From an uncultured Chloroflexia bacterium (GTDB lineage: Bacteria; Chloroflexota; Limnocylindria; QHBO01), in the NCBI GenBank assembly GCA_963814375.1, contig CAWFCQ010000004.1, positions 320,001 through 384,000 of the forward strand: a stretch of 64,000 nucleotides of DNA, read 5' to 3'. The notes beneath the pieces are model-generated. The model did not search any database. It was not told the DNA's origin and saw nothing but the letters and a program-made list of their open reading frames with translations. A program made the translations under genes and the position numbers. This document shows, one piece after another, positions 46,116-56,708 of this stretch (its first letter is position 1; every line of letters starts with the position of its first letter).

Positions 46116-47780
46116 TCAGACCTCCATCACGATCGGCAGGATCATGGGTCGCCGCTTGGTGCGCTCGTGGAAGAAGCGGCTGAGCGTGTCGCGGATCTTC
46201 GTCTTCAGGAAGCCAGGCTCGGCGGCGTGCTCGTCCTCGTGCGGCTGGCGGAGCGCCTTGAGCAGGTGGTCGCGCGCCTCACCCATCAGCGGATCGTCCG
46301 GATCCGACAGGAACCCGCGGCTCACCAGGTCGGGGTTGCCGACCGGCTGACCGGTCTGGGCGTCCACCGTGAGCGCCACCATCACCACGCCGTCCGAGGC
46401 GAGCATGCGTCGATCGCGCAGGACGACGCCGTCGATGCCGTCGATCGCGGCGATCCCGTCGACGAGCACCGCACCGGCGGCCACCGGGGCCGCCAGACGG
46501 GCTCGCTCGCCGTCCCACTCGACCGCCTGTCCGTTCTCGAGCACGAAGATGCGGTCGACGCCGACGCCAGCGCCCTCGGCCAGCAGGCCGTGCTGCACGA
46601 GCATCCGGTACTCACCGTGGATCGGGATGAAGTGGCGCGGCTTGACGAGGCCCAGCATCAGCTTGAGCTCCTCGCGCGAGCCGTGGCCGGAGACGTGGCA
46701 GTGGACGAGCGGCTCGTAGTGGACCATCGCGCCCTCCTTGAAGAGGTTGTCGATGGTCTTGGCGACGGCCTCCTCGTTGCCGGGGATCGGCGAGGCGGAG
46801 ACGATGACCGTGTCGCCCGGCTCGATCGTGATGTTCCGATGGTCGCGGTTGCTCATGCGAGTCAGCCCGCTCATCGGCTCGCCCTGCGACCCGGTGGTCA
46901 TGACCACCAGCTGCTCCTTGGGCAGACGCTGGAGCTGGTCCTTCTTCACCAGCGTGCCGTCGCGGGCGTCGAGGTAGCCGCGCTCGAGCGCGATGGCGGT
47001 GTTCTGCTCCATGCTTCTGCCGAGGGCGACCATCTTGCGGCCGTGCGCCCAGGCGGCGTCGATCACCTGCTGGACGCGCCCGATGTTGCTGGCGAAGGTT
47101 GCGACGATGACGCGGCCGTGCGCCTCTCCGACCAGGCGGTGGAGGCTCTCGCCAACGGTCGCCTCGGAGAGGGTGTAGCCCTCCTTCTCGGCTCGCGTCG
47201 AGTCGGAGAGGAGGAACTCGACCCCGCGGCTGCCGATCTCGGCGATGAGCCCCAGATCGGCACGACGCCCGTCCGGCGGTGTGTGGTCGAACTTGAAGTC
47301 ACCGGTGTGCACGACCGTGCCGAGCGGCGTGTCGATGGCGTAGCCGACGCCGTCCGGGATCGAGTGGCTCACTCGGAATGGCGTGACGCGGAAGAGGCCC
47401 ACCGCGAACTCACGCCCCGGCTCGACGATGTGCAGCGGTGTCGAGTCGAGCAGCTTGTGCTCGCGCAGCTTGCCCTGCACGAGGCCCTCCGTGAGGCGAG
47501 TCGCGTAGATCGGGGTGCCGGGGATCTGCGGGAGGACGTAAGGCAGCGCGCCGGTGTGATCCTCGTGGCCGTGGGTCAGCACGATCCCGCGCACGCGGTC
47601 CCGGTTCTCGGCGAGGAAGGTGACGTCGGGAATGACGAGGTCGATGCCGAGCATGTCCGGCTCAGGGAAGGCAAGGCCGCAGTCGACGACCAGGATCTCG
47701 CCCGCGACCTCGATGACGGTGATGTTCTTGCCGACCTCGCCCACCCCACCGAGCGGGATGATGCGCAGGGAATCGGGCAT
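46116..47780 (-). CDS. rnj: Ribonuclease J
   Basis: PLGGVGEVGKN, THGHEDH, HTGDFK, GSQGEP, HVSGH, PIHGEYR. Confidence 0.97.
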   Translation of the reverse strand: MPDSLRIIPLGGVGEVGKNITVIEVAGEILVVDCGLAFPEPDMLGIDLVIPDVTFLAENRDRVRGIVLTHGHEDHTGALPYVLPQIPGTPIYATRLTEGLVQGKLREHKLLDSTPLHIVEPGREFAVGLFRVTPFRVSHSIPDGVGYAIDTPLGTVVHTGDFKFDHTPPDGRRADLGLIAEIGSRGVEFLLSDSTRAEKEGYTLSEATVGESLHRLVGEAHGRVIVATFASNIGRVQQVIDAAWAHGRKMVALGRSMEQNTAIALERGYLDARDGTLVKKDQLQRLPKEQLVVMTTGSQGEPMSGLTRMSNRDHRNITIEPGDTVIVSASPIPGNEEAVAKTIDNLFKEGAMVHYEPLVHCHVSGHGSREELKLMLGLVKPRHFIPIHGEYRMLVQHGLLAEGAGVGVDRIFVLENGQAVEWDGERARLAAPVAAGAVLVDGIAAIDGIDGVVLRDRRMLASDGVVMVALTVDAQTGQPVGNPDLVSRGFLSDPDDPLMGEARDHLLKALRQPHEDEHAAEPGFLKTKIRDTLSRFFHERTKRRPMILPIVMEV

Positions 47781-47788
47781 GGGTGCTC

Positions 47789-48481
47789 CTAGAAGAGGGT
47801 CATCTGTTCGGCGTCGACGGCATCCCGCTCCGGCTCGAGCTCCGGGGCGGCCGCCTCCTCGACCCGTACGGCTGTCGACTGCTCGTCGCCGAGCGCCTCG
47901 CGCGCGGCCAGCAGCGCCGCCGGCAGCCCACGCATGTCACTGAACAGGGTTTCGCGCAGCGAGGCCTGGTGCAGCGCCGCAGCAGGATGGTACATCGGGA
48001 AGACGTGCTGACCGGAGAAGGACCGACGCAGCTGACCGTGAACGGCGCCGATCCGCGCTCCCGGCAGGTACCGCTGAAGCGAGTGGCGGCCGAGGGTCAC
48101 GACCACGGCCGGGTCGAGGGCCCGCTCCTGGCGGTCGAGGTACCCGCTGCAGGCCGCCGCCTCCGCCGGCTCGGGGTCGCGATTGGCCGGCGGCCGGCAC
48201 TTGACGATGTTCGTGATGAATACGTCGTTGCGCGCCCAGCCGATGGCGTGGAGGAGCTCGTCGAGAAGCTGACCTGCCGGGCCGACGAACGGCCGGCCGG
48301 TGGCGTCCTCCCGCGCACCCGGTCCCTCCCCCACCAGCAGGACGTCGCTCAGCAGGTTGCCCTCACCGGGCACGGCGTGCGTGCGGCGTGCAGCCAGGGG
48401 GCAGAGGGTGCAGACGCGCACCTCTTCAGCGATCTGGGCGAGCGCGCCCACCCCGTCGTTCGGCTCACCCGAGGCGCCCAT
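47789..48481 (-). CDS. udg: Uracil-DNA glycosylase family 4 (4Fe-4S)
   Basis: CxxC, GEGPG, GRPFVG, KCRPP.NR, YHPAA. Confidence 0.93.
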
Positions 48482-48529
48482 CGGCACCGAGGGTAGCGCG
48501 CCGCCGCACGGTGCGGCGGCGCCATCGGT

Positions 48530-51163
48530 CTACGAGCGGTCGTCGTTCCCGGAACCCGAACCGGCGCCGGCCTTGGCCATGTGTCGCTCCATCGCCGCTC
48601 GGCGGCTCAGGTTGACGCGACCCATGCGGTCGATCTCGGTCACGACCACCATCAGCTCATCGCCGATGCTGACCACGTCCTCGACGCGCGGCACCCGGTA
48701 GTCGGCGAGCTGGCTGATGTGGACCAGGCCCTCCTTGCCGGGCAGGATCTCGACGAAGGCACCGAAGTTCATGATCCGGGTGACCTTGCCGAGGTACTCC
48801 TTGCCGACCTCCACATCCTTGGTCAGGCCTTCGATCCAGGCGATCGCCTTCTTGGCGGCCTCGCCGTCGGTGGCGGCGATCTGGATGGTGCCGTCGTCCT
48901 CGACGTTGATCTGGGTGCCGGTCTCGGCGGTGATCTGGCGGATCACCTTGCCACCGGCGCCGATGACGTCGCGGATTTTGTCGACGGGGATCTTCAGCGT
49001 CGTGATGCGCGGCGCATACGGGCTGAGCTCCTCGCGGCTGGCGCTGATGACCTCGGTCATCTTGCCCAGGATGTGGATCCGGGCATCGTGGGCCTGGAGG
49101 AGCGCATCGCGGCAGATCTCGGGCGTGATGCCCGCGACCTTGATGTCCATCTGGAGCGCGGTGACTCCCTCGGACGTGCCGGTCACCTTGAAGTCCATGT
49201 CGCCGTAGGCGTCTTCCTTGCCGGTGATGTCGGTCAGGACGGCGTAGCGGCCGGTCTCCTTGTCGGTGATCAGGCCCATCGCGGCGCCGGCCACCGGAGC
49301 CTTGATCGGCACGCCTGCATCCATGAGGGCAAGCGTCGAGCCGCAGGTGGAGGCCATGGAGGTGGAGCCGTTCGAGCTGACGCACTCGCTGACCACTCGG
49401 ATCACGTACGGGAACTCGTCCGTGGAGGGGAGGACCGGCAGGAGCGCGCGCTCGGCGAGCGCACCGTGGCCGATCTCACGTCGGCCGGGACCGCGCATGA
49501 ACTTCGCCTCGCCGACCGAGTACGGCGGCATGTTGTAGTGGTGCATGTAGCGCTTCTCGGTCTCGGGGCTGATCGTGTCCATGCGCTGGACGTCGCTCGA
49601 CGGGCCGAGCGTCGCGATCGAGAGCGCCTGGGTCTGGCCACGGGTGAAGAGGCCAGAACCGTGCGTGCGTGGCAGGACGCCGACCTCCACGCTGATGGGC
49701 CGGATCGTGGTCGTGTCGCGACCGTCGATCCTGATGTTCTCGTTGAGCACGAGCTCACGGACGGTCGCCTTCGTGATCACGTCCATGAGCGGCGAGCCGA
49801 TGCCATGGCGCCGGCGGATGTCCTCCATCCGGTCGCCCTGCTCGGAGCGGTTGTAGCCCTCGCGGGCGCGACGGACCTCGCCGGCGATGTCCTCGCGGAT
49901 CGCGTCGAGGCGCTCCGCCAGGCCCGAGGTGAAGTGGATGAACAGCTCCGCGGTGGCCTCGGCATCCGGCATCGCGCGATGGGCCGCAGCGTGGTCGCGA
50001 CCGAAGACGAAGCGAACGAGGTCGGCGAGCTTCCACGCGCCGGCATCCGGGTAGAGCTGGTAGCCGAGCTCGAGGGTGTCGAAGACGGCCTTCGGCTCCC
50101 ACTTCACATCGTTCGGCAGGTGACGCAGCACGTACGGCAGGTCGAACGCGATGTTGTGCGCCACGATCGGCGTCTCGCCGACCCACTGCGTGAAGTTGGT
50201 CAGAACCTCGGCCGCGGTCGGGGCGCTGGCGACGTCATCGGTGCTGATGCCGTGCACCTGGTGCCCGACGATGGCGCGTCCGGGGTTGACGAGCGACTCG
50301 AAGCGGTCGACGACCTGGCCGTCGCGCACGCGAAGGGCGGCGATGTCCACGATGTAGCCGTTCTCCGGCTTGATCGCGGTCGTCTCGAGGTCGAAGACGA
50401 CGAACTCGTTCTGCCCCTCGCTGAGCAGCTTGCCGAGCTGGGCGACCGATGCCGCCTTGGGGGCAACGAACGGAACCTTCTTCGGCGTGCCTGCCGAGGC
50501 GACGAGCCGGTCCTGGAGCTCGATCGACTTCTGGAGCTCGGAATGTCCGAAGGCGATGGCATCGGCCATGACCTCCTCGGGCAGGATCTTCGCGCCGGCC
50601 TCGACCATCATGACCGCGTCGCGCGTGCCGGCCACGACGAGATCCAGCTCGCTCTCGGCCAGCTGGCTGTTCGTCGGGTTGGTGACGAACTCACCGTTCA
50701 GGCGGCCGACGCGGACGGCGCCGATGGGGCCCTGGAACGGGATGTGGCTCACGCTCAGCGCGGCCGATGCGCCGTTCAGCGCGAGAATATCCGGGTCGTT
50801 TTCCTGGTCGGTCGAGAGGACCGTCAGGACGACCTGGACGTCGTTGTAGTAGCCCTTGGGGAAGAGCGGGCGGATCGGCCGGTCGGTGAGGCGCATCGCC
50901 AGGATGGCAGCCTCCGACGGGCGCGACTCGCGCTTGATGAAGCCGCCCGGGATCTTGCCGGCGGCGTACATCCGCTCCTCGTAGTCGACGGTGAGCGGGA
51001 AGAAGTCGGCGCCCTCGCGCGGCTCCTTCGCGGCCACCGCGGTCGCCAGGACGACGCTATCGCCATAGCGGACGATGACTGCGCCATCGGCCTGCTCGGC
51101 CAGCTTGCCGGCCTCCATGCTGAAGACCTGGCCGCCGATCTCGGCCTCGTGCTTGATTGCCAC
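48530..51163 (-). CDS. pnp: Polynucleotide phosphorylase with an inserted DEDDh exonuclease domain
   Basis: [37 protein letters not shown] and S1 domains; extra domain at about aa 252-410. Confidence 0.97.
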
Positions 51164-51268
51164 AGATTCCTCCAGAGTGATGTCTGCCTGGCGCGCTTCG
51201 ACGCTGGTGCGCGAAGCGCAGGCGTCAGGCAGGGGCGGTTGCCCGTTGCGTGATGTTCAGATAGGCGA

Positions 51269-51300
51269 GACCCAGAACCCGACGGTGGGGGTCCTGGGTC
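51269..51300 (-). terminator. Hairpin between rpsO and pnp (terminator or processing site)
   Basis: GACCCAGGACCC...GGGTTCTGGGTC stem on the minus strand right after the rpsO stop. Confidence 0.55.
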
Positions 51301-51312
51301 GATCGCAGGTGG

Positions 51313-51582
51313 TTAGCGGCGCAGTCCCAAGCCGGTGATGACGGCGCGGTAGCGGTCCACGTCATGTCGGACGAGGTAGGCCAGCAGCCGTCGTCGCTGC
51401 CCGACGAGCTTCAGCAGCCCGCGGCGCGAGTGGTTGTCCTTGGGGAAGCTGCGCAGATGATCCGTCAGCGACTTGATCCGCTCGGTGAGAAGCGCAATCT
51501 GCACCTCGGGTGACCCTGTGTCGCCCTCGTGCGTGGCGTATTCGTCGACGATTGCGCTTTTCGCGTCCTTGGCGAGCGGCAC
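51313..51582 (-). CDS. rpsO: 30S ribosomal protein S15
   Basis: [30 protein letters not shown]; GGAGG RBS; TGGTAAACT extended -10 upstream. Confidence 0.98.
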
Positions 51583-51660
51583 GTATTCCTCCACATTCGT
51601 TTCCGTTATGGTCGGAAGTTTACCAGAGGACCCGGGCGGCCGCCATTGACCCCGATCGGT

Positions 51661-52593
51661 TCAGCGCCGGGGTGATGTGCCGAGACGCCGACGTGCCTCG
51701 GCCTCGTCCGCCTTCATCTGAGCGACCAGGGCATCTGCCGATTCGAACCGCCGCTCCTCCCGCAGGCGAGCGTCGAGCTCGACGGTGAGCGTCGTGCCAT
51801 ACAGGTCTCCGTCCCAATCGAGGAGGTAGACCTCGACGAGAACGCGGCCCTCGTCGTGGAAGGTCGGCCGCACCCCCACGCTGACGAGCGCAGGGTGATC
51901 CGGGCCGACCGACCGGTCAGGGACGGCCACGCGGCCCAGGTAGATTCCCAATGCCGGGAGCGCGGGCGCGTAGGCGAACTCGAGGTTGGCTGTGGGAAAT
52001 CCGAGCTCCCTCCCCCGCCGGTCGCCGTGGATCACGACGCCGCGAAGCAACGGCGCCGCGCCGAGCAGCGCGGCGGCCCTCTCGACATCGCCGCTCGTGA
52101 GCAGCTCACGGATGCGCGAGGACGAAACGGTGGCGCCCTCGACGACGAGCGGCTCGACGGCGATCGCGTCGAAGCCGCGCGCGGCGCCGATCTCCCCCAC
52201 CCGCTCGAGCGTGCCGCTCCGCGCGCGCCCGAAGGCGCTGTCCGGCGTCATGACGACGCCGCGAAGGTCGATTCCGGGTGCGAGGGCGTCGAGGAACGCC
52301 TCCGGCTCCATCGCGCGCACCCGGTCATCGAACCCAACCTCGATGGCACGGTCCAGCCCGGCTACCATCAGTCGCGACAGGGTGACCTCGGGCGGGAGGA
52401 GTCGCGGCACGCGGGTGTCGGGCCGGATGATCTCGTCCGGATGCGGGCTGAAGACGATCCCGACCGCCTGCGCCCGACGTTCGACCGCGGCGGCGCGCGT
52501 GGCCTCGACGACGTGACGGTGGCCGCGGTGAACTCCGTCGAAGACGCCGAGCGCCACCACCGATGGCCCGATGTTCGGGACGGATATCGTCAC
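51661..52593 (-). CDS. ribF: Bifunctional riboflavin kinase/FAD synthetase
   Basis: GVFDGVHRGH, SSSRIR, GRELGFPTAN, GVRPTF. Confidence 0.95.
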   Translation of the reverse strand: MTISVPNIGPSVVALGVFDGVHRGHRHVVEATRAAAVERRAQAVGIVFSPHPDEIIRPDTRVPRLLPPEVTLSRLMVAGLDRAIEVGFDDRVRAMEPEAFLDALAPGIDLRGVVMTPDSAFGRARSGTLERVGEIGAARGFDAIAVEPLVVEGATVSSSRIRELLTSGDVERAAALLGAAPLLRGVVIHGDRRGRELGFPTANLEFAYAPALPALGIYLGRVAVPDRSVGPDHPALVSVGVRPTFHDEGRVLVEVYLLDWDGDLYGTTLTVELDARLREERRFESADALVAQMKADEAEARRRLGTSPRR

Positions 52594-53480
52594 CGCGCCG
52601 CCTCCGTGGTCAGCACCTTCTCGGGACGAAGCCAGCCGCCGACCAGCGAGCCGACCCCCAGGAGTCCGGTCGCGGCGAAGACCTTGACGCGGCCGTCGGC
52701 GTCGAGGCTCGCCATCGGCTGCTGCGTCCCATGGACGAAGCGCCACGCGGCGTCCTCCTCGAGGGTGATCGACGGAAGGGTGAGGAGGTCGCCGACCGGC
52801 AGGATCGTCTCGGCAAGCCGTCCCTCGCCGGCCATCGACTCGAGCTCGGAAGGCGTGACGCCGTCGTCCACGCGCAGCCCGGCCGCCTCGGTACGTCGCA
52901 GGGCGTGAAGGTGACCACCGCAGCCGAGCCGCTCGCCGAGGTCCCTGGCGATCGAGCGGATGTACGTCCCCGGCCCGCAGCGGATGTCGAGCTGCACGTC
53001 CACGCGGTCCTCGTCGTTGTCGATTCCCAGCAGGTCGATCCGATCCACCGTGACGGTGCGGGGCGCAAGCTCGACCGGCTCGCCTGCACGCGCAGCGCGG
53101 TAGGCGGGACGCCCGGCGACCTTGCGAGCGCTGAAGCTCGGCGGCAGCTGGTCGAATGTGCCGACGAAGCTCTCCAGGGCGTCCCGGACCGCCGACTCTG
53201 ATGGGGGCGGCGCGCCGGTGAGCGTGAGCGGGCCCTGGGCGTCGTCGGTTGCCGAGCGCTCACCCAGGCGCACGACGGCCTCGTATCGCTTGCGGCCCCC
53301 GGTCAGCTCCTCGCTGAACCGGGTCGCCTGCCCCACCAGGATCGGCAGGACGCCGGACGCCAGCGGATCGAGTGTCCCTGCATGGCCGATCCGACGCGTC
53401 CCCGTGAGACGGCGCAGGAGCCCGACCATGTCGTGGCTGGTGGGACCGACCGGCTTGTCGAGGTTAACGACCCCGAGCAT
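52590..53480 (-). CDS. truB: tRNA pseudouridine(55) synthase
   Basis: DKPVGPTSHD, GHAGTLDP, GTYIRS, LRRT. Confidence 0.97.
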   Translation of the reverse strand: MLGVVNLDKPVGPTSHDMVGLLRRLTGTRRIGHAGTLDPLASGVLPILVGQATRFSEELTGGRKRYEAVVRLGERSATDDAQGPLTLTGAPPPSESAVRDALESFVGTFDQLPPSFSARKVAGRPAYRAARAGEPVELAPRTVTVDRIDLLGIDNDEDRVDVQLDIRCGPGTYIRSIARDLGERLGCGGHLHALRRTEAAGLRVDDGVTPSELESMAGEGRLAETILPVGDLLTLPSITLEEDAAWRFVHGTQQPMASLDADGRVKVFAATGLLGVGSLVGGWLRPEKVLTTEAAR

Positions 53481-54447
53481 CGGCACGCTCGAGCTCGCGC
53501 ACGCACTCTGCCAGCACGCGATCCCGCGCGTCATCGAGCCGCGCGTCGACGGTGCACCCTGCCGCACGAGCGTGGCCGCCCCCACCGAAGGCCGAGGTGA
53601 TCGCCACCGCATCGGCGCGCGCGGAGGTGCGGACGCTGACGCGGGTCTGGACCTCGGTCGCCTGCTTGAAGAGGAGCGTGACGTCCGCCGCCTTCGTGGA
53701 GGCGAGCAGGTCGATGAACCCCTCGCCGGCGACCGGATCGGTCCCGGTCTCCGACAGCATCCCCAGGGTCATGGCGGCGTGGACGATCCGGCCGTCATGC
53801 AGCTCGGCGGCACCGGCCAGGATGCGGCCCCACAGCGCGAGCGTGCTGAAGGGCTTGTCGGCATAGATGGCGCGGTGGATCGCCGAGAGTGGCGCGCCGG
53901 CCTCGACCAGGTCGGCGGTCACGCGCAGGGTGCGGGGCGTGGCATTCGGGTGCGCGAACGTGTGCGTGTCCTGCACGATCCCCGCGGTGAGGACGCTCGC
54001 GATGTCGTGGTCGATCTCGATGCCCAGGTCGGGCAGCAGCATGGCCACCATCTCGCACGTTGCCGCCGCGTCGGGGTCCACCCAGGCCACCGCGGCTTCC
54101 CCACCGTCGTTCGAGACGTGGTGGTCGATGTTCACGATGCGTGCGCGGCCGAGCCACTCGGCCGCCTCAATCGCCACCGCGCCGGTGCGCGACGGCGGCC
54201 CGTCGACGACGACGGCGACGTCCGGCTCGAGCGCGGGGCGCGTGCGTACCTCGGCGGCGTGCGGGAGGTGGGCGAGCGATGGCGGCACGGGGTCGGCGGC
54301 GACGACCTCCGCCTGCTTTCCCAGCCGCTCCGCGGCCATCCGAAGGGCGAGGGCGGCCCCGAGTGTGTCGGCATCCGGGTTCTCGTGGCAGATGGCGGTG
54401 ATCCGGCTGGCATCACGGAGCGCGGCGACCACCGCCTCGCGGCTCAC
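53464..54447 (-). CDS. nrnA: DHH/DHHA1 phosphoesterase (NrnA-like nanoRNase/pAp phosphatase)
   Basis: HENPDAD, NIDHH, GGGGHARAAG; lies between rbfA and truB. Confidence 0.88.
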   Translation of the reverse strand: MSREAVVAALRDASRITAICHENPDADTLGAALALRMAAERLGKQAEVVAADPVPPSLAHLPHAAEVRTRPALEPDVAVVVDGPPSRTGAVAIEAAEWLGRARIVNIDHHVSNDGGEAAVAWVDPDAAATCEMVAMLLPDLGIEIDHDIASVLTAGIVQDTHTFAHPNATPRTLRVTADLVEAGAPLSAIHRAIYADKPFSTLALWGRILAGAAELHDGRIVHAAMTLGMLSETGTDPVAGEGFIDLLASTKAADVTLLFKQATEVQTRVSVRTSARADAVAITSAFGGGGHARAAGCTVDARLDDARDRVLAECVRELERADARGR

Positions 54448-54797
54448 GGCTCGCTGCCCTCGGTCTCGAGCTCGTTGAGGATGCGCAGCACGCGGTCGCC
54501 CGCCTCGATCGAGTCGTCGTGGCGGATGACCAGCTGCGGGATGTGGCGCAGGCTCAGTCGTTGCGCGAGCTGGCGGCGAAGCCACGGAGCGGCATCGGTC
54601 AGTGCGGCAAGCGCCGCCTTCTGCTCCTCCGCGCTGCCAAGCACGCTGACCCAGACCCGGGCGCTCCCCAGGTCGCGAGCCGTCTCGACGCGCGTGACGG
54701 TCGCGAACCCGACGCGCGGGTCCTTCATCTCGCGCTGGAACAGCTCCATCAGCTCGGCGCGGATCTGGCTGTCCAGCCGATTCGTGCGGTCGCTCAT
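54444..54797 (-). CDS. rbfA: Ribosome-binding factor A
   Basis: KDPRVGFATVTRV, DLGSARVWVS, LRHIPQL. Confidence 0.95.
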   Translation of the reverse strand: MSDRTNRLDSQIRAELMELFQREMKDPRVGFATVTRVETARDLGSARVWVSVLGSAEEQKAALAALTDAAPWLRRQLAQRLSLRHIPQLVIRHDDSIEAGDRVLRILNELETEGSEP

Positions 54798-54803
54798 CTG
54801 CGG

Positions 54804-56708
54804 CTAGGCCTGCTCGGCCACCATCTGGTAGCACTCGATGACGTCGCCCTCGGCGATGTCCTCGGCGTCGAGACCGATGCCGCACTCGAGATTGGTCGCC
54901 ACCTCGCGGACGTCGTCCTTGAACCGCTTCAGCGATGTGATGCGGGTGTCGGCCAGCAGCTCCCCGCCTCGGAAGAGGCGCGCCTGACCGCCGCGCACGA
55001 TCCGGCCATCGGTCACGTACGAGCCGGCGATGTTCCCGGCCTTCCCGGCCTTGATGATCATGCGCACCTCGGCGTGGCCCTCGACCTGCTCGACCAGCTT
55101 CGGCTCGAGGAGGCCGGACAGCGCCAGGCCGATGTCATCGGTGAGCTTGTAGATGACGTCGTAGAGGCGAACGTCGATGCCGGTCGTCTCGACCAGCCGC
55201 TGGGCACCCGGGTCGAGCTTCGTGTTGAAGCCGATGACGACCGCCTCGGACGCCGATGCCAGGTTGATGTCGCTTTCGTTGATGTCCCCTGCGCCCTCGC
55301 GCAGGATGTTGATCCGGACCTCGGTCGTGTTCAGGCGTTCGAGGGCGTGGCGGATCGCGCCGAGCGAGCCCTGCACGTCGGTCTTGAGCACGACCCGCAG
55401 CTCGGCGACCTCGCTGGCCTGGATGGCGGCGCTGATCTCCTCGAGGCTACTGACCGCGCGACCGTCTCCGGCGACTCCGGCCGTCGCCGTCGTCTCGGCC
55501 GCGTCACGGGCGGTTTTCTCGTCCGCGACGACCCGGAGGATGTCGCCGGCCTCGGGCAGGCCCTGGAGGCCGATGATCTCGACCGCCGTCGCCGGCTCGG
55601 CCTGCTTGACGCGCTTGCCGGCGGCGTTGTTCAGGGCGCGGACGCGGCCATACGTGCGACCCACGCTGACGACCTGGCCGACGGCGAGCGTTCCGGTCTG
55701 GACGAGGACGGTGGCCACGTTGCCGCGGCCCTTGTCCACCTTCGACTCGACGATCGTCCCGATCGCCTCGCGGTCCGGGTTGGCCTTGAGGTCCTGGAGG
55801 TCGGCGACGAGGAGCACCATCTCCATCAGGTCGTCGATCCCGGTGCGCTGCTTGGCGCTGACCGCGACGGCGATGATGTCGCCGCCGTACTCCTCGATCA
55901 GGACCTTGTTGTCGGCGAGCTCCTGCTTCACCCGGTCCGGGTTGGCGTCGGGCTTGTCGACCTTGTTGATCGCCACGATCATCGGAACGCGCGCCGCCCG
56001 GACGTGGTCGATCGCCTCCTTCGTCTGTGGCATGACGCCGTCATCGGCGGCCACGACGATGATCGCGATGTCGGTGACCTGGGCGCCACGCGCTCGCATC
56101 GCGGTGAAGGCCTCGTGGCCCGGCGTGTCGAGGAAGACGATGCGCTTGCCGTTGTGGTCGACCTCGGACGCGCCGATGTGCTGGGTGATGCCGCCGCTCT
56201 CGCCGGAGGCGACCTTCGTCTCGCGAATGGCGTCGAGCAGGCTCGTCTTGCCGTGGTCGACGTGGCCCATGACGGTGACGATCGGCGCGCGGGCGACGAG
56301 CTTGGTGGGATCATCATCGGTCCACAGCACGCGCTTGCCATCGCCATTAGCACTCGCGCCCGGGGCCACGAGATCCTGTCCGGCGGCCTCCTCGGCGGCG
56401 GCGCGCTCCGCGACGCCCCGCTCGGTCGTCTCGAAGCCGAGCTCGCCCGCCACGAGCGAGGCGGTGTCGAAGTCGATCGACTGGTTGACGGTGGCGAAGA
56501 TGCCGTTGCGGATGAGGACGTTGATGATCTCCGACGGGGTCACCCCCAGCGTCTCGGCCATGTCCTTGACCGCGACCGGGTTGGGCAGCTCGACCGGGCC
56601 CTCCGGCCTGACGGGCGCCGTCTCGGTGGCGACGCTCCCGGGGCGGGGCCCGGTGCGCTTGCGCTGCGGCCGTGGGCCGCGACGCGGGCGATATCTACTT
56701 GGGGGCAT
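54804..56708 (-). CDS. infB: Translation initiation factor IF-2
   Basis: [33 protein letters not shown]. Confidence 0.98.

Follow-up and report, generated by a model that had tools for sequence, protein, structure and literature searches.

A PNPase gene with an embedded exonuclease domain

The 64,000-nucleotide stretch of DNA analyzed here (the window; contig CAWFCQ010000004.1 of assembly GCA_963814375.1, positions 320,001 to 384,000) belongs to an uncultured Chloroflexota bacterium and contains a pnp gene for polynucleotide phosphorylase (PNPase) in which a DEDDh 3'-5' exonuclease domain is embedded between the two RNase PH domains (PH1 and PH2). The gene and its product are termed pnp-exo and PNPase-exo. 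The open reading frame (ORF) occupies window positions 48530..51163 on the minus strand, begins with a GTG start codon and encodes 877 amino acids with no stop codon or frameshift within. Its parts are given below in window coordinates, with the evidence for each.

48530..51163 (-): pnp-exo gene, PNPase with embedded DEDDh domain, the end coordinate taking in the stop codon; ORF, Pfam and NCBIfam
50519..51163 (-): RNase PH domain 1, residues 1-215; Pfam RNase_PH 15-142 and RNase_PH_C 145-208
50408..50518 (-): N-terminal linker, residues 216-252, with a conserved GxPK and two helices running into the insert; alignment, model helices 211-224 and 237-248, ratio of non-synonymous to synonymous substitution rates (dN/dS) 0.20
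49928..50407 (-): DEDDh 3'-5' exonuclease domain, residues 253-412; PF00929 at 255-408, sequence and fold matches in the PDB
50384..50392 (-): ExoI catalytic codons D258 to E260 (DLE inside FVVFDLETT); motif position and invariance
50141..50143 (-): ExoII catalytic codon D341 (inside AHNIAFD); motif position and invariance
49964..49981 (-): ExoIII H395 to D400 (inside HRAMPDA), the histidine being the 'h' that defines the DEDDh subtype; motif position and invariance
49736..49927 (-): residual alpha-helical linker of PNPase with three helices, residues 413-476; model helices 415-432, 439-453 and 457-475, partial match to PF03726
49019..49735 (-): RNase PH domain 2, residues 477-715, with the phosphorolytic site (RREIGHG 561, SNGSTSMAS 597, GDMDFK 654); Pfam and motifs
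48824..49018 (-): KH domain, residues 716-780; Pfam KH_1 721-778
48596..48823 (-): S1 domain, residues 781-856; Pfam S1 784-855

The Pfam domains follow the order RNase_PH and RNase_PH_C, RNase_T, a linker piece, RNase_PH and RNase_PH_C, KH and S1. The RNase_T model (PF00929) matches residues 255-408 over its entire length (profile positions 1-164 of 164, E 1.1e-21) and, with 78.6 bits, lies far past its cut-off of 24. The Pfam model of the PNPase linker (PF03726) is recognized only at residues 459-483, which correspond to profile positions 57-81 of 81, with 19.2 bits and under its cut-off of 24.6. Each of the NCBIfam PNPase models TIGR03591 (982.1 bits, cut-off 525) and NF008805 (978.7 bits, cut-off 471) matches in two stretches that are split by the insert. 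The diagnostic motifs are located at residues 254-262 (FVVFDLETT), 335-341 (AHNIAFD), 395-401 (HRAMPDA), 478-482 (RIDGR), 561-567 (RREIGHG), 597-605 (SNGSTSMAS) and 654-659 (GDMDFK). The DEDDh set is complete (D258, E260, D341, H395 and D400), with the histidine five residues ahead of the last aspartate.

This architecture had been proposed earlier from the letters of the window alone (the original prediction), and it holds in all its parts. The 877-residue ORF carries every motif that had been named, at the residue assigned to it, as rechecking of the motif positions confirmed. The interval proposed for the inserted nuclease, 49930-50410, covers residues 252-412 and coincides with the DEDDh domain. 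According to Pfam and NCBIfam, this domain lies between the RNase PH domains and is followed by a short helical segment, and PH2, KH and S1 are retained.

Distribution among Chloroflexota and a single gain

The insert was traced through five families (f1 to f5) of the class labelled Candidatus Limnocylindria, of which f1, f3 and f4 bear the insert and f2 and f5 are insert-free. Unpublished genomes (G006; G144, G178, G118, G109, G089, G128, G113; G225; G407, G523, G376, G343, G260, G460) enter the tallies only; no locus was taken from them, and no claim is based on any one of them. Among 201 genomes of the class, PNPase was found at E<=1e-40 in 65/66 genomes of f1, 60/60 of f3, 7/7 of f4, 64/66 of f2 and 1/1 of f5. 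The PNPase matches listed for f1, f3 and f4 are continuous over approximately residues 1-870 or are ended by contig edges. For f2 and f5, PNPase is mostly matched in two pieces per genome that skip approximately residues 237-461, within frames of ~740-770 amino acids. These pieces cover approximately residues 4-236 and 462-859, and the C-terminal ones among the matches listed begin at approximately residues 453-465. At the level of the phylum (401 genomes), 45 genomes combine a best E of 0 with continuous coverage, namely 18 of f1 (including the genome of the window), 23 of f3 and four of f4; E = 0 is not attained in any of the remaining 356, and the matches listed for them all begin at query residue 401 or beyond (>=401).

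Protein collections return the same architecture. A word-indexed search with residues 215-480 retrieved 946 proteins at E<=1e-3 among 8000 scored. The best 120 of these 946 are 80-89% identical to the query, all combine RNase_T with RNase PH, and the named ones are labelled Candidatus Limnocylindria or Chloroflexota. Public annotations call such proteins 'polyribonucleotide nucleotidyltransferase', 'DNA polymerase III epsilon subunit family exonuclease' or 'exonuclease domain-containing protein, partial'. An exhaustive HMMER search with the insert and its junctions against 1.84 billion representative proteins yielded 17 matches at E<=1e-30. Those that cross a junction are fusions with, or fragments of, PNPase, as judged by Pfam for P0125, P0126, P0127, P0148, P0153 and P0211 and by sequence only for P0141 and P0149, and they resemble the f3 and f4 types.

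To place the gain of the insert, phylogenies of the host protein and of the inserted domain were compared. The PNPase phylogeny, a finished and careful maximum-likelihood tree of 28 rows, was calculated after exclusion of the linker, insert and helical columns and includes six outgroup PNPases from other Chloroflexota. Its 16 insert-bearing rows form one clade (support 100/99), and the six f2 and f5 proteins form a separate clade (100/100). The DEDDh trees are quick trees with support only from the Shimodaira-Hasegawa-like approximate likelihood-ratio test (SH-aLRT); the inserts form one clade in both of them, with values of 94 (160 rows) and 96 (63 rows). The PNPase tree and the DEDDh tree thus indicate one gain of the insert. 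The original prediction had called for a phylogeny of the insert against the exonuclease domains of PolC, DnaQ and DinG; a single insert clade was recovered, and its placement beside DinG, described below, received weak support.

Type of the DEDDh domain and structure models

The domain can be compared with ExoDinG, the form of DinG in which an exonuclease precedes a helicase. An insert-only model of residues 230-478 reached a predicted local distance difference test score (pLDDT) of 93.8 and a predicted template modelling score (pTM) of 0.90, and displays the RNase H-like alpha/beta fold of the DEDDh family. Foldseek searches of the PDB with this model identified S. aureus DinG as the best match (8zef_A, E 4.8e-12), with PolC and DnaQ domains next; the DinG exonuclease, the PolC exonuclease, the epsilon subunit, RNase T and TREX are all matched at a probability of 1.00. 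A model of the whole protein (pLDDT 78, pTM 0.72) contains an alpha/beta domain at residues 253-412 and three long helices at 415-475 that lead into PH2. These three helices after the insert appear in both models, and the whole-protein model fits solved PNPases (7ogm_L, E 9e-67, 42% identity). Neither Orn nor RNase T is represented by a model among the best 25 NCBIfam matches, which include PRK07883, PolC, DinG and epsilon models, or by an entry among the 11 PDB sequence matches. Helicase families (DEAD, Helicase_C_2) were not detected in the 877-residue protein by Pfam. PNPase-exo therefore stands outside the ExoDinG family, as no helicase follows its exonuclease domain.

The nearest relatives other than PNPases include proteins with several DEDDh domains. 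P0137 combines three RNase_T domains with GIY-YIG and UVR, P0132 has two RNase_T domains and BRCT, P0135 is a DinG with two RNase_T domains, and P0139 is a PolC-like polymerase of 1631 residues with two RNase_T domains.

Complementarity with DinG and origin of the insert

The DEDDh and DinG content was examined in 121 class genomes, all at least 90% complete (>=90%) except that of the window, which is 89% complete. In the latter, PF00929 matches once, in the PNPase insert. Across the 121 genomes, one match was obtained in 100, two or three in 20 and none in 1. Where the match is single, it lies within the PNPase frame in f1, f3 and f4 and at the N-terminus of DinG in f2 and f5. The ExoDinG proteins of f2 and f5 measure ~890 amino acids, contain DEAD and Helicase_C_2 after the exonuclease and have intact DEDDh residues. 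With ExoDinG as the query, full-length DinG was retrieved from 21/21 genomes of f2 and 1/1 of f5, a few of them split by contig ends. In f1, f3 and f4, the same query matched the exonuclease part alone, at the pnp locus, with 37-51% identity, and the helicase part was not found in these families among the 121 genomes save for G059 and G108. For the genome of the window, the DinG search gave no match of any sort at E<=1e-15. In a second sample of 121 genomes drawn from the phylum, ExoDinG matched in 85 at E<=1e-30, with at least 30 (>=30) of the matches listed covering exonuclease and helicase together, and it was found in 0/10 f1 and 0/3 f3 genomes of that sample. From this distribution of DinG it follows that plain PNPase plus ExoDinG looks like the ancestral state and PNPase-exo without DinG like the derived one.

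In the 160-row DEDDh tree, the sister group of the inserts is a clade of 20 rows (support 91), 15 of which are DinG according to a helicase hidden Markov model and which holds all five Limnocylindria DinG. A single clade of the inserts and the DinG exonucleases of the class was not rejected by the approximately unbiased (AU) test (log-likelihood difference 3.3, p 0.40). In mean identity, the f3 and f4 inserts are nearest to the DinG exonucleases of the class (0.40 versus 0.36 for the other two sets), although this comparison is biased, the sets having been picked as top matches to an f1 query, and gives no clear answer on the origin. An ExoDinG-type origin is likely, and the relocation of a resident DinG domain is plausible.

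Several observations weigh against this interpretation. The join of the inserts to the DinG clade has a support of only 68 in the 160-row tree, and the 63-row tree is a polytomy. The PDB sequence search ranks PolC exonucleases over DinG: the 11 matches are led by the PolC exonucleases 2p1j (6.4e-19) and 9qpc (1.2e-15), followed by S. aureus DinG 8zef (3e-13) and then the epsilon subunit. Among NCBIfam models, the top DEDD match is the PRK07883 type (NF005906) with 136.8 bits, ahead of PolC (111) and DinG (107). The f1 inserts have a mean identity of 0.35 to the DinG exonucleases of the class versus 0.38 to other DinG. Helicase-like exceptions consist of a 107-residue piece at a contig end (G059) and a stretch of 36% identity within a 2041-residue frame (G108). 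A second DEDDh match is present in 20/121 genomes, including 4/5 of the sampled f4 genomes (in a 206-residue frame in three and a 246-residue frame in one); with these extra matches, the sole DEDDh domain is a rule and no law. In addition, the genomes are metagenome-assembled and incomplete, so that 'not found' falls short of 'absent'. A DinG origin is thus favoured, though short of demonstrated.

The strongest competitor traces the DEDDh domain to a non-DinG source, such as a PRK07883-type or stand-alone DEDD exonuclease, and treats the loss of DinG as unrelated or as a later consequence, with no relocation of the resident domain. The higher NF005906 score, the polytomy of the 63-row tree and the f1 inserts, which are no nearer to the DinG exonucleases of the class than to others, speak in its favour. 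It leaves aside, however, that insert and DinG are complementary over 121 genomes, barring the G059 and G108 matches, that the best fold match is DinG and that the sister group in the 160-row tree is rich in DinG; moreover, the AU test permits a clade with the class's own DinG, to whose exonucleases the f3 and f4 inserts are on average nearest. This source is accordingly regarded as unlikely, although it deserves more weight than any other alternative considered here.

The additional DEDDh genes are of different kinds. In f4, the second gene is stand-alone and was located at L031 (G032:C2, 836-1378 on the plus strand, ORF of 181 amino acids) as well as on G078:C23, G087:C5 and G126:C8; the 246-residue frame is the one in G126, and f4 genomes have sizes of 1.0-1.4 Mb. 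This gene is very divergent and forms the longest branch of the DEDDh tree, with its catalytic residues intact. One f1 genome encodes an extra protein of 433 amino acids with an N-terminal RNase_T domain (L030; G002:C18, 1176-2474, plus strand), and another has a 667-residue frame with a C-terminal RNase_T domain and a HAMP match under the cut-off (L032; G044:C27, 2-2002, plus strand), which is possibly foreign, given that it lies on a 2-kb contig. In six insert-free genomes (G035:C4, G153:C50, G252:C20, G280:C4, G296:C2 and G272:C35), dinG and pnp are found on the same contig, ~30-85 kb apart and non-adjacent.

Other exonucleases and the role of the domain

Exonucleases of the RNB family (RNase R/II) were found in 0/121 class genomes, and the same search was positive in 11/14 control genomes. 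Since no RNB protein was found, the single DEDDh domain of these cells is their sole hydrolytic 3'-5' exonuclease from the two commonest enzyme families. The absence of RNB from the sampled genomes is class-wide and independent of the PNPase insert. A role in replicative proofreading, as in the epsilon subunit, was considered and set aside: the insert-free families f2 and f5 are likewise without a separate DEDDh domain besides DinG, and because they also lack a dnaQ-type gene, its absence is a trait of the whole class that is not offset by the insert.

An alternative function, placed first among the roles suggested in the original prediction, would be that of an Orn-like nanoRNase, with the embedded domain mainly finishing the limit products of 2-5 nucleotides as they leave the PNPase ring. 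The pairing of PNPase with a separate DEDDh oligoribonuclease (REXO2, Orn) reportedly exists elsewhere, and the search of the genome of the window yielded no second DEDDh gene, hence neither Orn nor RNase T. The domain would further be seated on the helical linker, which is described as lining the pore to the phosphorolytic site (PMC2723993), and S. aureus DinG is reported to cut dT20 to 1-nucleotide products (PMC12525004). B. subtilis DinG, however, is reported to stop at products of 6-8 nucleotides on hybrids (PMC12525004). The gene cluster itself contains, four genes off, an NrnA-like DHH/DHHA1 gene, the usual nanoRNase of bacteria without Orn, and the sister families f2 and f5, also without Orn, cope without the insert. 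Finally, the insert is nearest to ExoDinG, PolC and PRK07883-type domains, with RNase T merely a weaker fold match. A nanoRNase as the main function thus seems improbable. The ExoDinG type of the domain, its standing as the sole DEDDh domain and the absence of DinG instead shift the likeliest role to 3'-end trimming or RNA quality control and away from the finishing of nanoRNA.

Selection and the active site

Residues D258, E260, D341, H395 and D400 are invariant in 16/16 insert-bearing proteins of the three families, and all five are kept in 121/121 sequences when the query is combined with its 120 listed close homologues. Within residues 216-470, 41 of 255 positions are invariant among the 16 proteins, including T261, T262, H336, F340 and R396. 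This conservation is embedded in a divergent background, given that f1 and f3/f4 proteins share 43% identity over the DEDDh domain versus 67-78% over PH1, PH2 and S1. Pairwise comparison of seven f1 genes gave median dN/dS values of 0.133 (DEDDh domain), 0.132 (PH2) and 0.095 (PH1), with faster evolution of the linker pieces flanking the insert (0.20 and 0.27). In f3, the values are 0.38 for the DEDDh domain and 0.20 for PH2. By these measures, the insert is under purifying selection with an intact catalytic set. The phosphorolytic motifs, which the original prediction had taken to be retained, are at the expected residues and invariant in 22/22 aligned PNPases.

The sequences speak strongly for a second active site of the hydrolytic kind, and the view of PNPase-exo as a dual phosphorolytic and hydrolytic nuclease is supported as far as invariant sites and purifying selection can carry it. 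Intact motifs and purifying selection nevertheless fall short of proving catalysis or of naming a substrate. It is conceivable that the DEDDh domain is a non-catalytic module that binds 3' ends, docks a partner or regulates the access of nucleoside diphosphates (NDPs) and phosphate. Pseudo-exonuclease domains are described in the DinG family (pExoDinG; PMC11981726), and an influence on active-site access is ascribed to the helical linker (PMC2723993). Yet pExoDinG has lost its catalytic residues; here all five are invariant despite an insert identity of 43%, as are H336, T261, T262 and F340 near the site, which makes such a module very unlikely.

Authenticity of the insertion

The unbroken PNPase-DEDDh frame recurs in dozens of independently assembled genomes. 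GC content amounts to 0.67-0.70 over the insert and equals that of the flanks. Intein, Hint or homing-endonuclease families are missing from the Pfam list of the protein at E<=0.01, and the ORF is open throughout, in agreement with the proposal that neither a frameshift nor an intein signature is present. Contigs from other public DNA runs bridge the N-terminal junction (X1 record 5, 50385-50612, 0 differences) and the C-terminal junction (X2 record 13, 49739-50018, 2 differences). The four sequencing runs compared are represented by Logan contigs of complex communities; each run contained less than half of the sampled words, and the best one 0.33. Both junctions, which the original prediction had wanted confirmed, are thus present in relatives and bridged by independent contigs. 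A chimera from assembly or binning, an intein or a recent mobile insertion can be excluded with near certainty by the presence of the same frame in all sampled genomes of f1, f3 and f4 and in 120/120 metagenome proteins among the matches listed, by the independent contigs across both junctions, by the uniform GC content, by the lack of an intein family and by the agreement of the insert tree with the host-protein tree. The insertion is real and fixed in the clade.

Contigs from two RNA libraries of one study (X6, X8) match the insert as well, with a likeness of 85-90%. Given this likeness they derive from relatives, and they are no proof of transcription because DNA can occur in RNA libraries. 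In all four runs, the summed contig depth spikes over 49177-49287 and 50953-51063, the most conserved segments of PH2 and PH1. These spikes most likely reflect PNPase contigs of many other organisms matched at 85% likeness and are no feature of the gene.

Proposed mechanism

Taken together, PNPase-exo probably acts as a 3'-5' exonuclease by phosphorolysis as well as by hydrolysis, PNPase having gained an ExoDinG-type domain once and taken over the nuclease job of ExoDinG. In this scheme, a DEDDh domain of the ExoDinG type would have been acquired on the stem of f1, f3 and f4, inside the alpha-helical linker between the RNase PH domains. The usual PNPase trimer, as expected from the family, would thereby obtain three metal-dependent hydrolytic sites, which would be situated on the ring face opposite S1 and KH, beside the side pore to the phosphorolytic site, and would trim 3' ends with no need for phosphate. 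The RNA-binding platform of PNPase may replace the lost helicase body as the carrier of the ExoDinG-type nuclease. A more elaborate version, in which an active phosphorolytic ring works with three DEDDh sites in an exosome-like manner and the ExoDinG nuclease moved into PNPase while the helicase was discarded, is proposed tentatively and with less confidence.

Literature on the components can be related to this mechanism. Listeria ExoDinG is described as a 3'-5' exonuclease on single-stranded RNA (ssRNA) and single-stranded DNA (ssDNA) for which the helicase ATPase motif is dispensable; it eliminates unprocessed rRNA both in vitro and in vivo, and its authors liken it to RNase R (PMC12774634). 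S. aureus DinG is reported as an active nuclease on ssDNA and ssRNA (PMC11981726), and B. subtilis DinG as one that digests ssDNA and, in hybrids, the RNA strand (PMC12525004). With Mg2+, however, the latter is reported to leave free ssRNA uncut (PMC12525004), so that an RNA role is not guaranteed. The helical linker of E. coli PNPase is located opposite S1 and KH and is described as part of a pore through which the phosphorolytic site can be reached, presumably by NDPs and phosphate (PMC2723993). Where the domain would sit on the trimer is projected from this published E. coli structure.

Comparison with known systems

Bacterial PNPase (TIGR03591; E. coli 7ogm and 3gcm, C. crescentus 4aim, S. 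antibioticus 1e3p) shares with PNPase-exo the two RNase PH domains, the PH2 motifs, KH and S1, and likewise the rpsO-pnp locus. The difference lies in ~140 additional residues and in a linker that is broken by a full DEDDh domain and retains only its last ~25 profile positions in recognisable form. The PDB PNPases among the matches listed (494-730 residues) have no such domain. ExoDinG (S. aureus 8zef, B. subtilis, Listeria) has the same type of DEDDh domain, and the exonuclease domains of ExoDinG from the sister families are 40-51% identical to f3 inserts. In ExoDinG, however, the exonuclease is N-terminal to a superfamily 2 helicase, whereas here it resides inside a phosphorolytic RNase ring with no helicase.

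PNPase and a separate DEDDh oligoribonuclease are said to act in one decay pathway in proteobacteria (Orn) and in mitochondria (REXO2 with PNPase-SUV3). The pairing of a phosphorolytic with a hydrolytic DEDDh activity is common to these systems and PNPase-exo. Orn and REXO2 are separate proteins, though, namely dimeric nanoRNases of another DEDDh subfamily, whereas the two activities are here covalently joined and the domain is of the DinG/PolC type. A further parallel is provided by the eukaryotic nuclear exosome, an RNase PH-like ring with the bound DEDD exonuclease Rrp6. In both cases, an RNase PH-type ring is coupled to a hydrolytic 3'-5' exoribonuclease of the DEDD superfamily. The ring of the exosome has no catalytic activity, and its DEDDy exonuclease Rrp6 is a distinct subunit at the cap side, whereas in PNPase-exo the ring is expected to be active and the DEDDh domain to be fused on the opposite face. 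This resemblance is one of design, not descent.

Novelty and implications

A full-text literature search, with a coverage that excludes most subscription journals, brought up no description of a PNPase-DEDD fusion, in line with the original prediction, for which no description was known either. The literature found to pair PNPase with DEDDh nucleases all concerns separate enzymes, and the words PNPase, polynucleotide and Chloroflex are absent from the DinG-family review PMC11981726. PNPase-exo sequences are already deposited, and the architecture appears undescribed; both component domains are well known, and what is added is a real and conserved variant of PNPase. The ExoDinG-type fold match, the absence of DinG alongside the insert and the lack of RNB in 121 class genomes are new here.

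To our knowledge, the domain plan of PNPase is regarded as fixed from bacteria to humans, and the enzyme is among the best-studied of RNA decay. A built-in second, hydrolytic exonuclease in its ring is thus unexpected. The carriers form a large and abundant group of soil and freshwater Chloroflexota in which the insert has long been fixed, and they can be viewed as a natural test of the division between phosphorolytic and hydrolytic 3'-5' decay in cells without RNase R/II. The striking link to a complementary loss of ExoDinG is relevant to the purpose of its nuclease and agrees with the recent evidence on rRNA precursors. PNPase-exo would also parallel the arrangement of exosome plus Rrp6, independently reached, and a single-chain exonuclease with two chemistries might find practical use. 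If the relocation is true, the selected job of the ExoDinG nuclease in these organisms would be the surveillance of RNA 3' ends (e.g. the removal of unprocessed rRNA) and not helicase-coupled DNA repair. Both chemistries would then cooperate on the same 3' ends, and the hydrolytic site could step in when phosphorolysis stalls or phosphate is scarce, offering the only hydrolytic processive route in a class without RNase R/II.

Gene neighbourhood

The gene is part of a cluster in the order DHH/DHHA1 gene, truB, ribF, rpsO, pnp, UDG-family gene and RNase J. The following neighbours were annotated:

51313..51594 (-): rpsO (ribosomal protein S15), the gene that usually precedes pnp; Ribosomal_S15, E 1.3e-35
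53464-54885 (-): DHH/DHHA1 (NrnA-like) gene, upstream of truB, ribF, rpsO and pnp
47789-48487 (-): UDG-superfamily gene, directly downstream of pnp
46116-47780 (-): RNase J, directly downstream of pnp together with the UDG-superfamily gene

With rpsO directly upstream, pnp-exo occupies the normal rpsO-pnp locus, as had been anticipated. A scan for promoters and terminators over 48300-51800 produced nothing that exceeds the shuffled expectation. The listed ORF of the DHH/DHHA1 gene comprises 473 amino acids, the first ~150 of which are rich in arginine and proline and free of domains, with DHH beginning at residue 162; the true start is probably further downstream, the extension being an ORF-calling effect of high-GC DNA. 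The cluster thus unites three RNA-decay genes, encoding the NrnA-like protein, PNPase-exo and RNase J, within ~9 kb.

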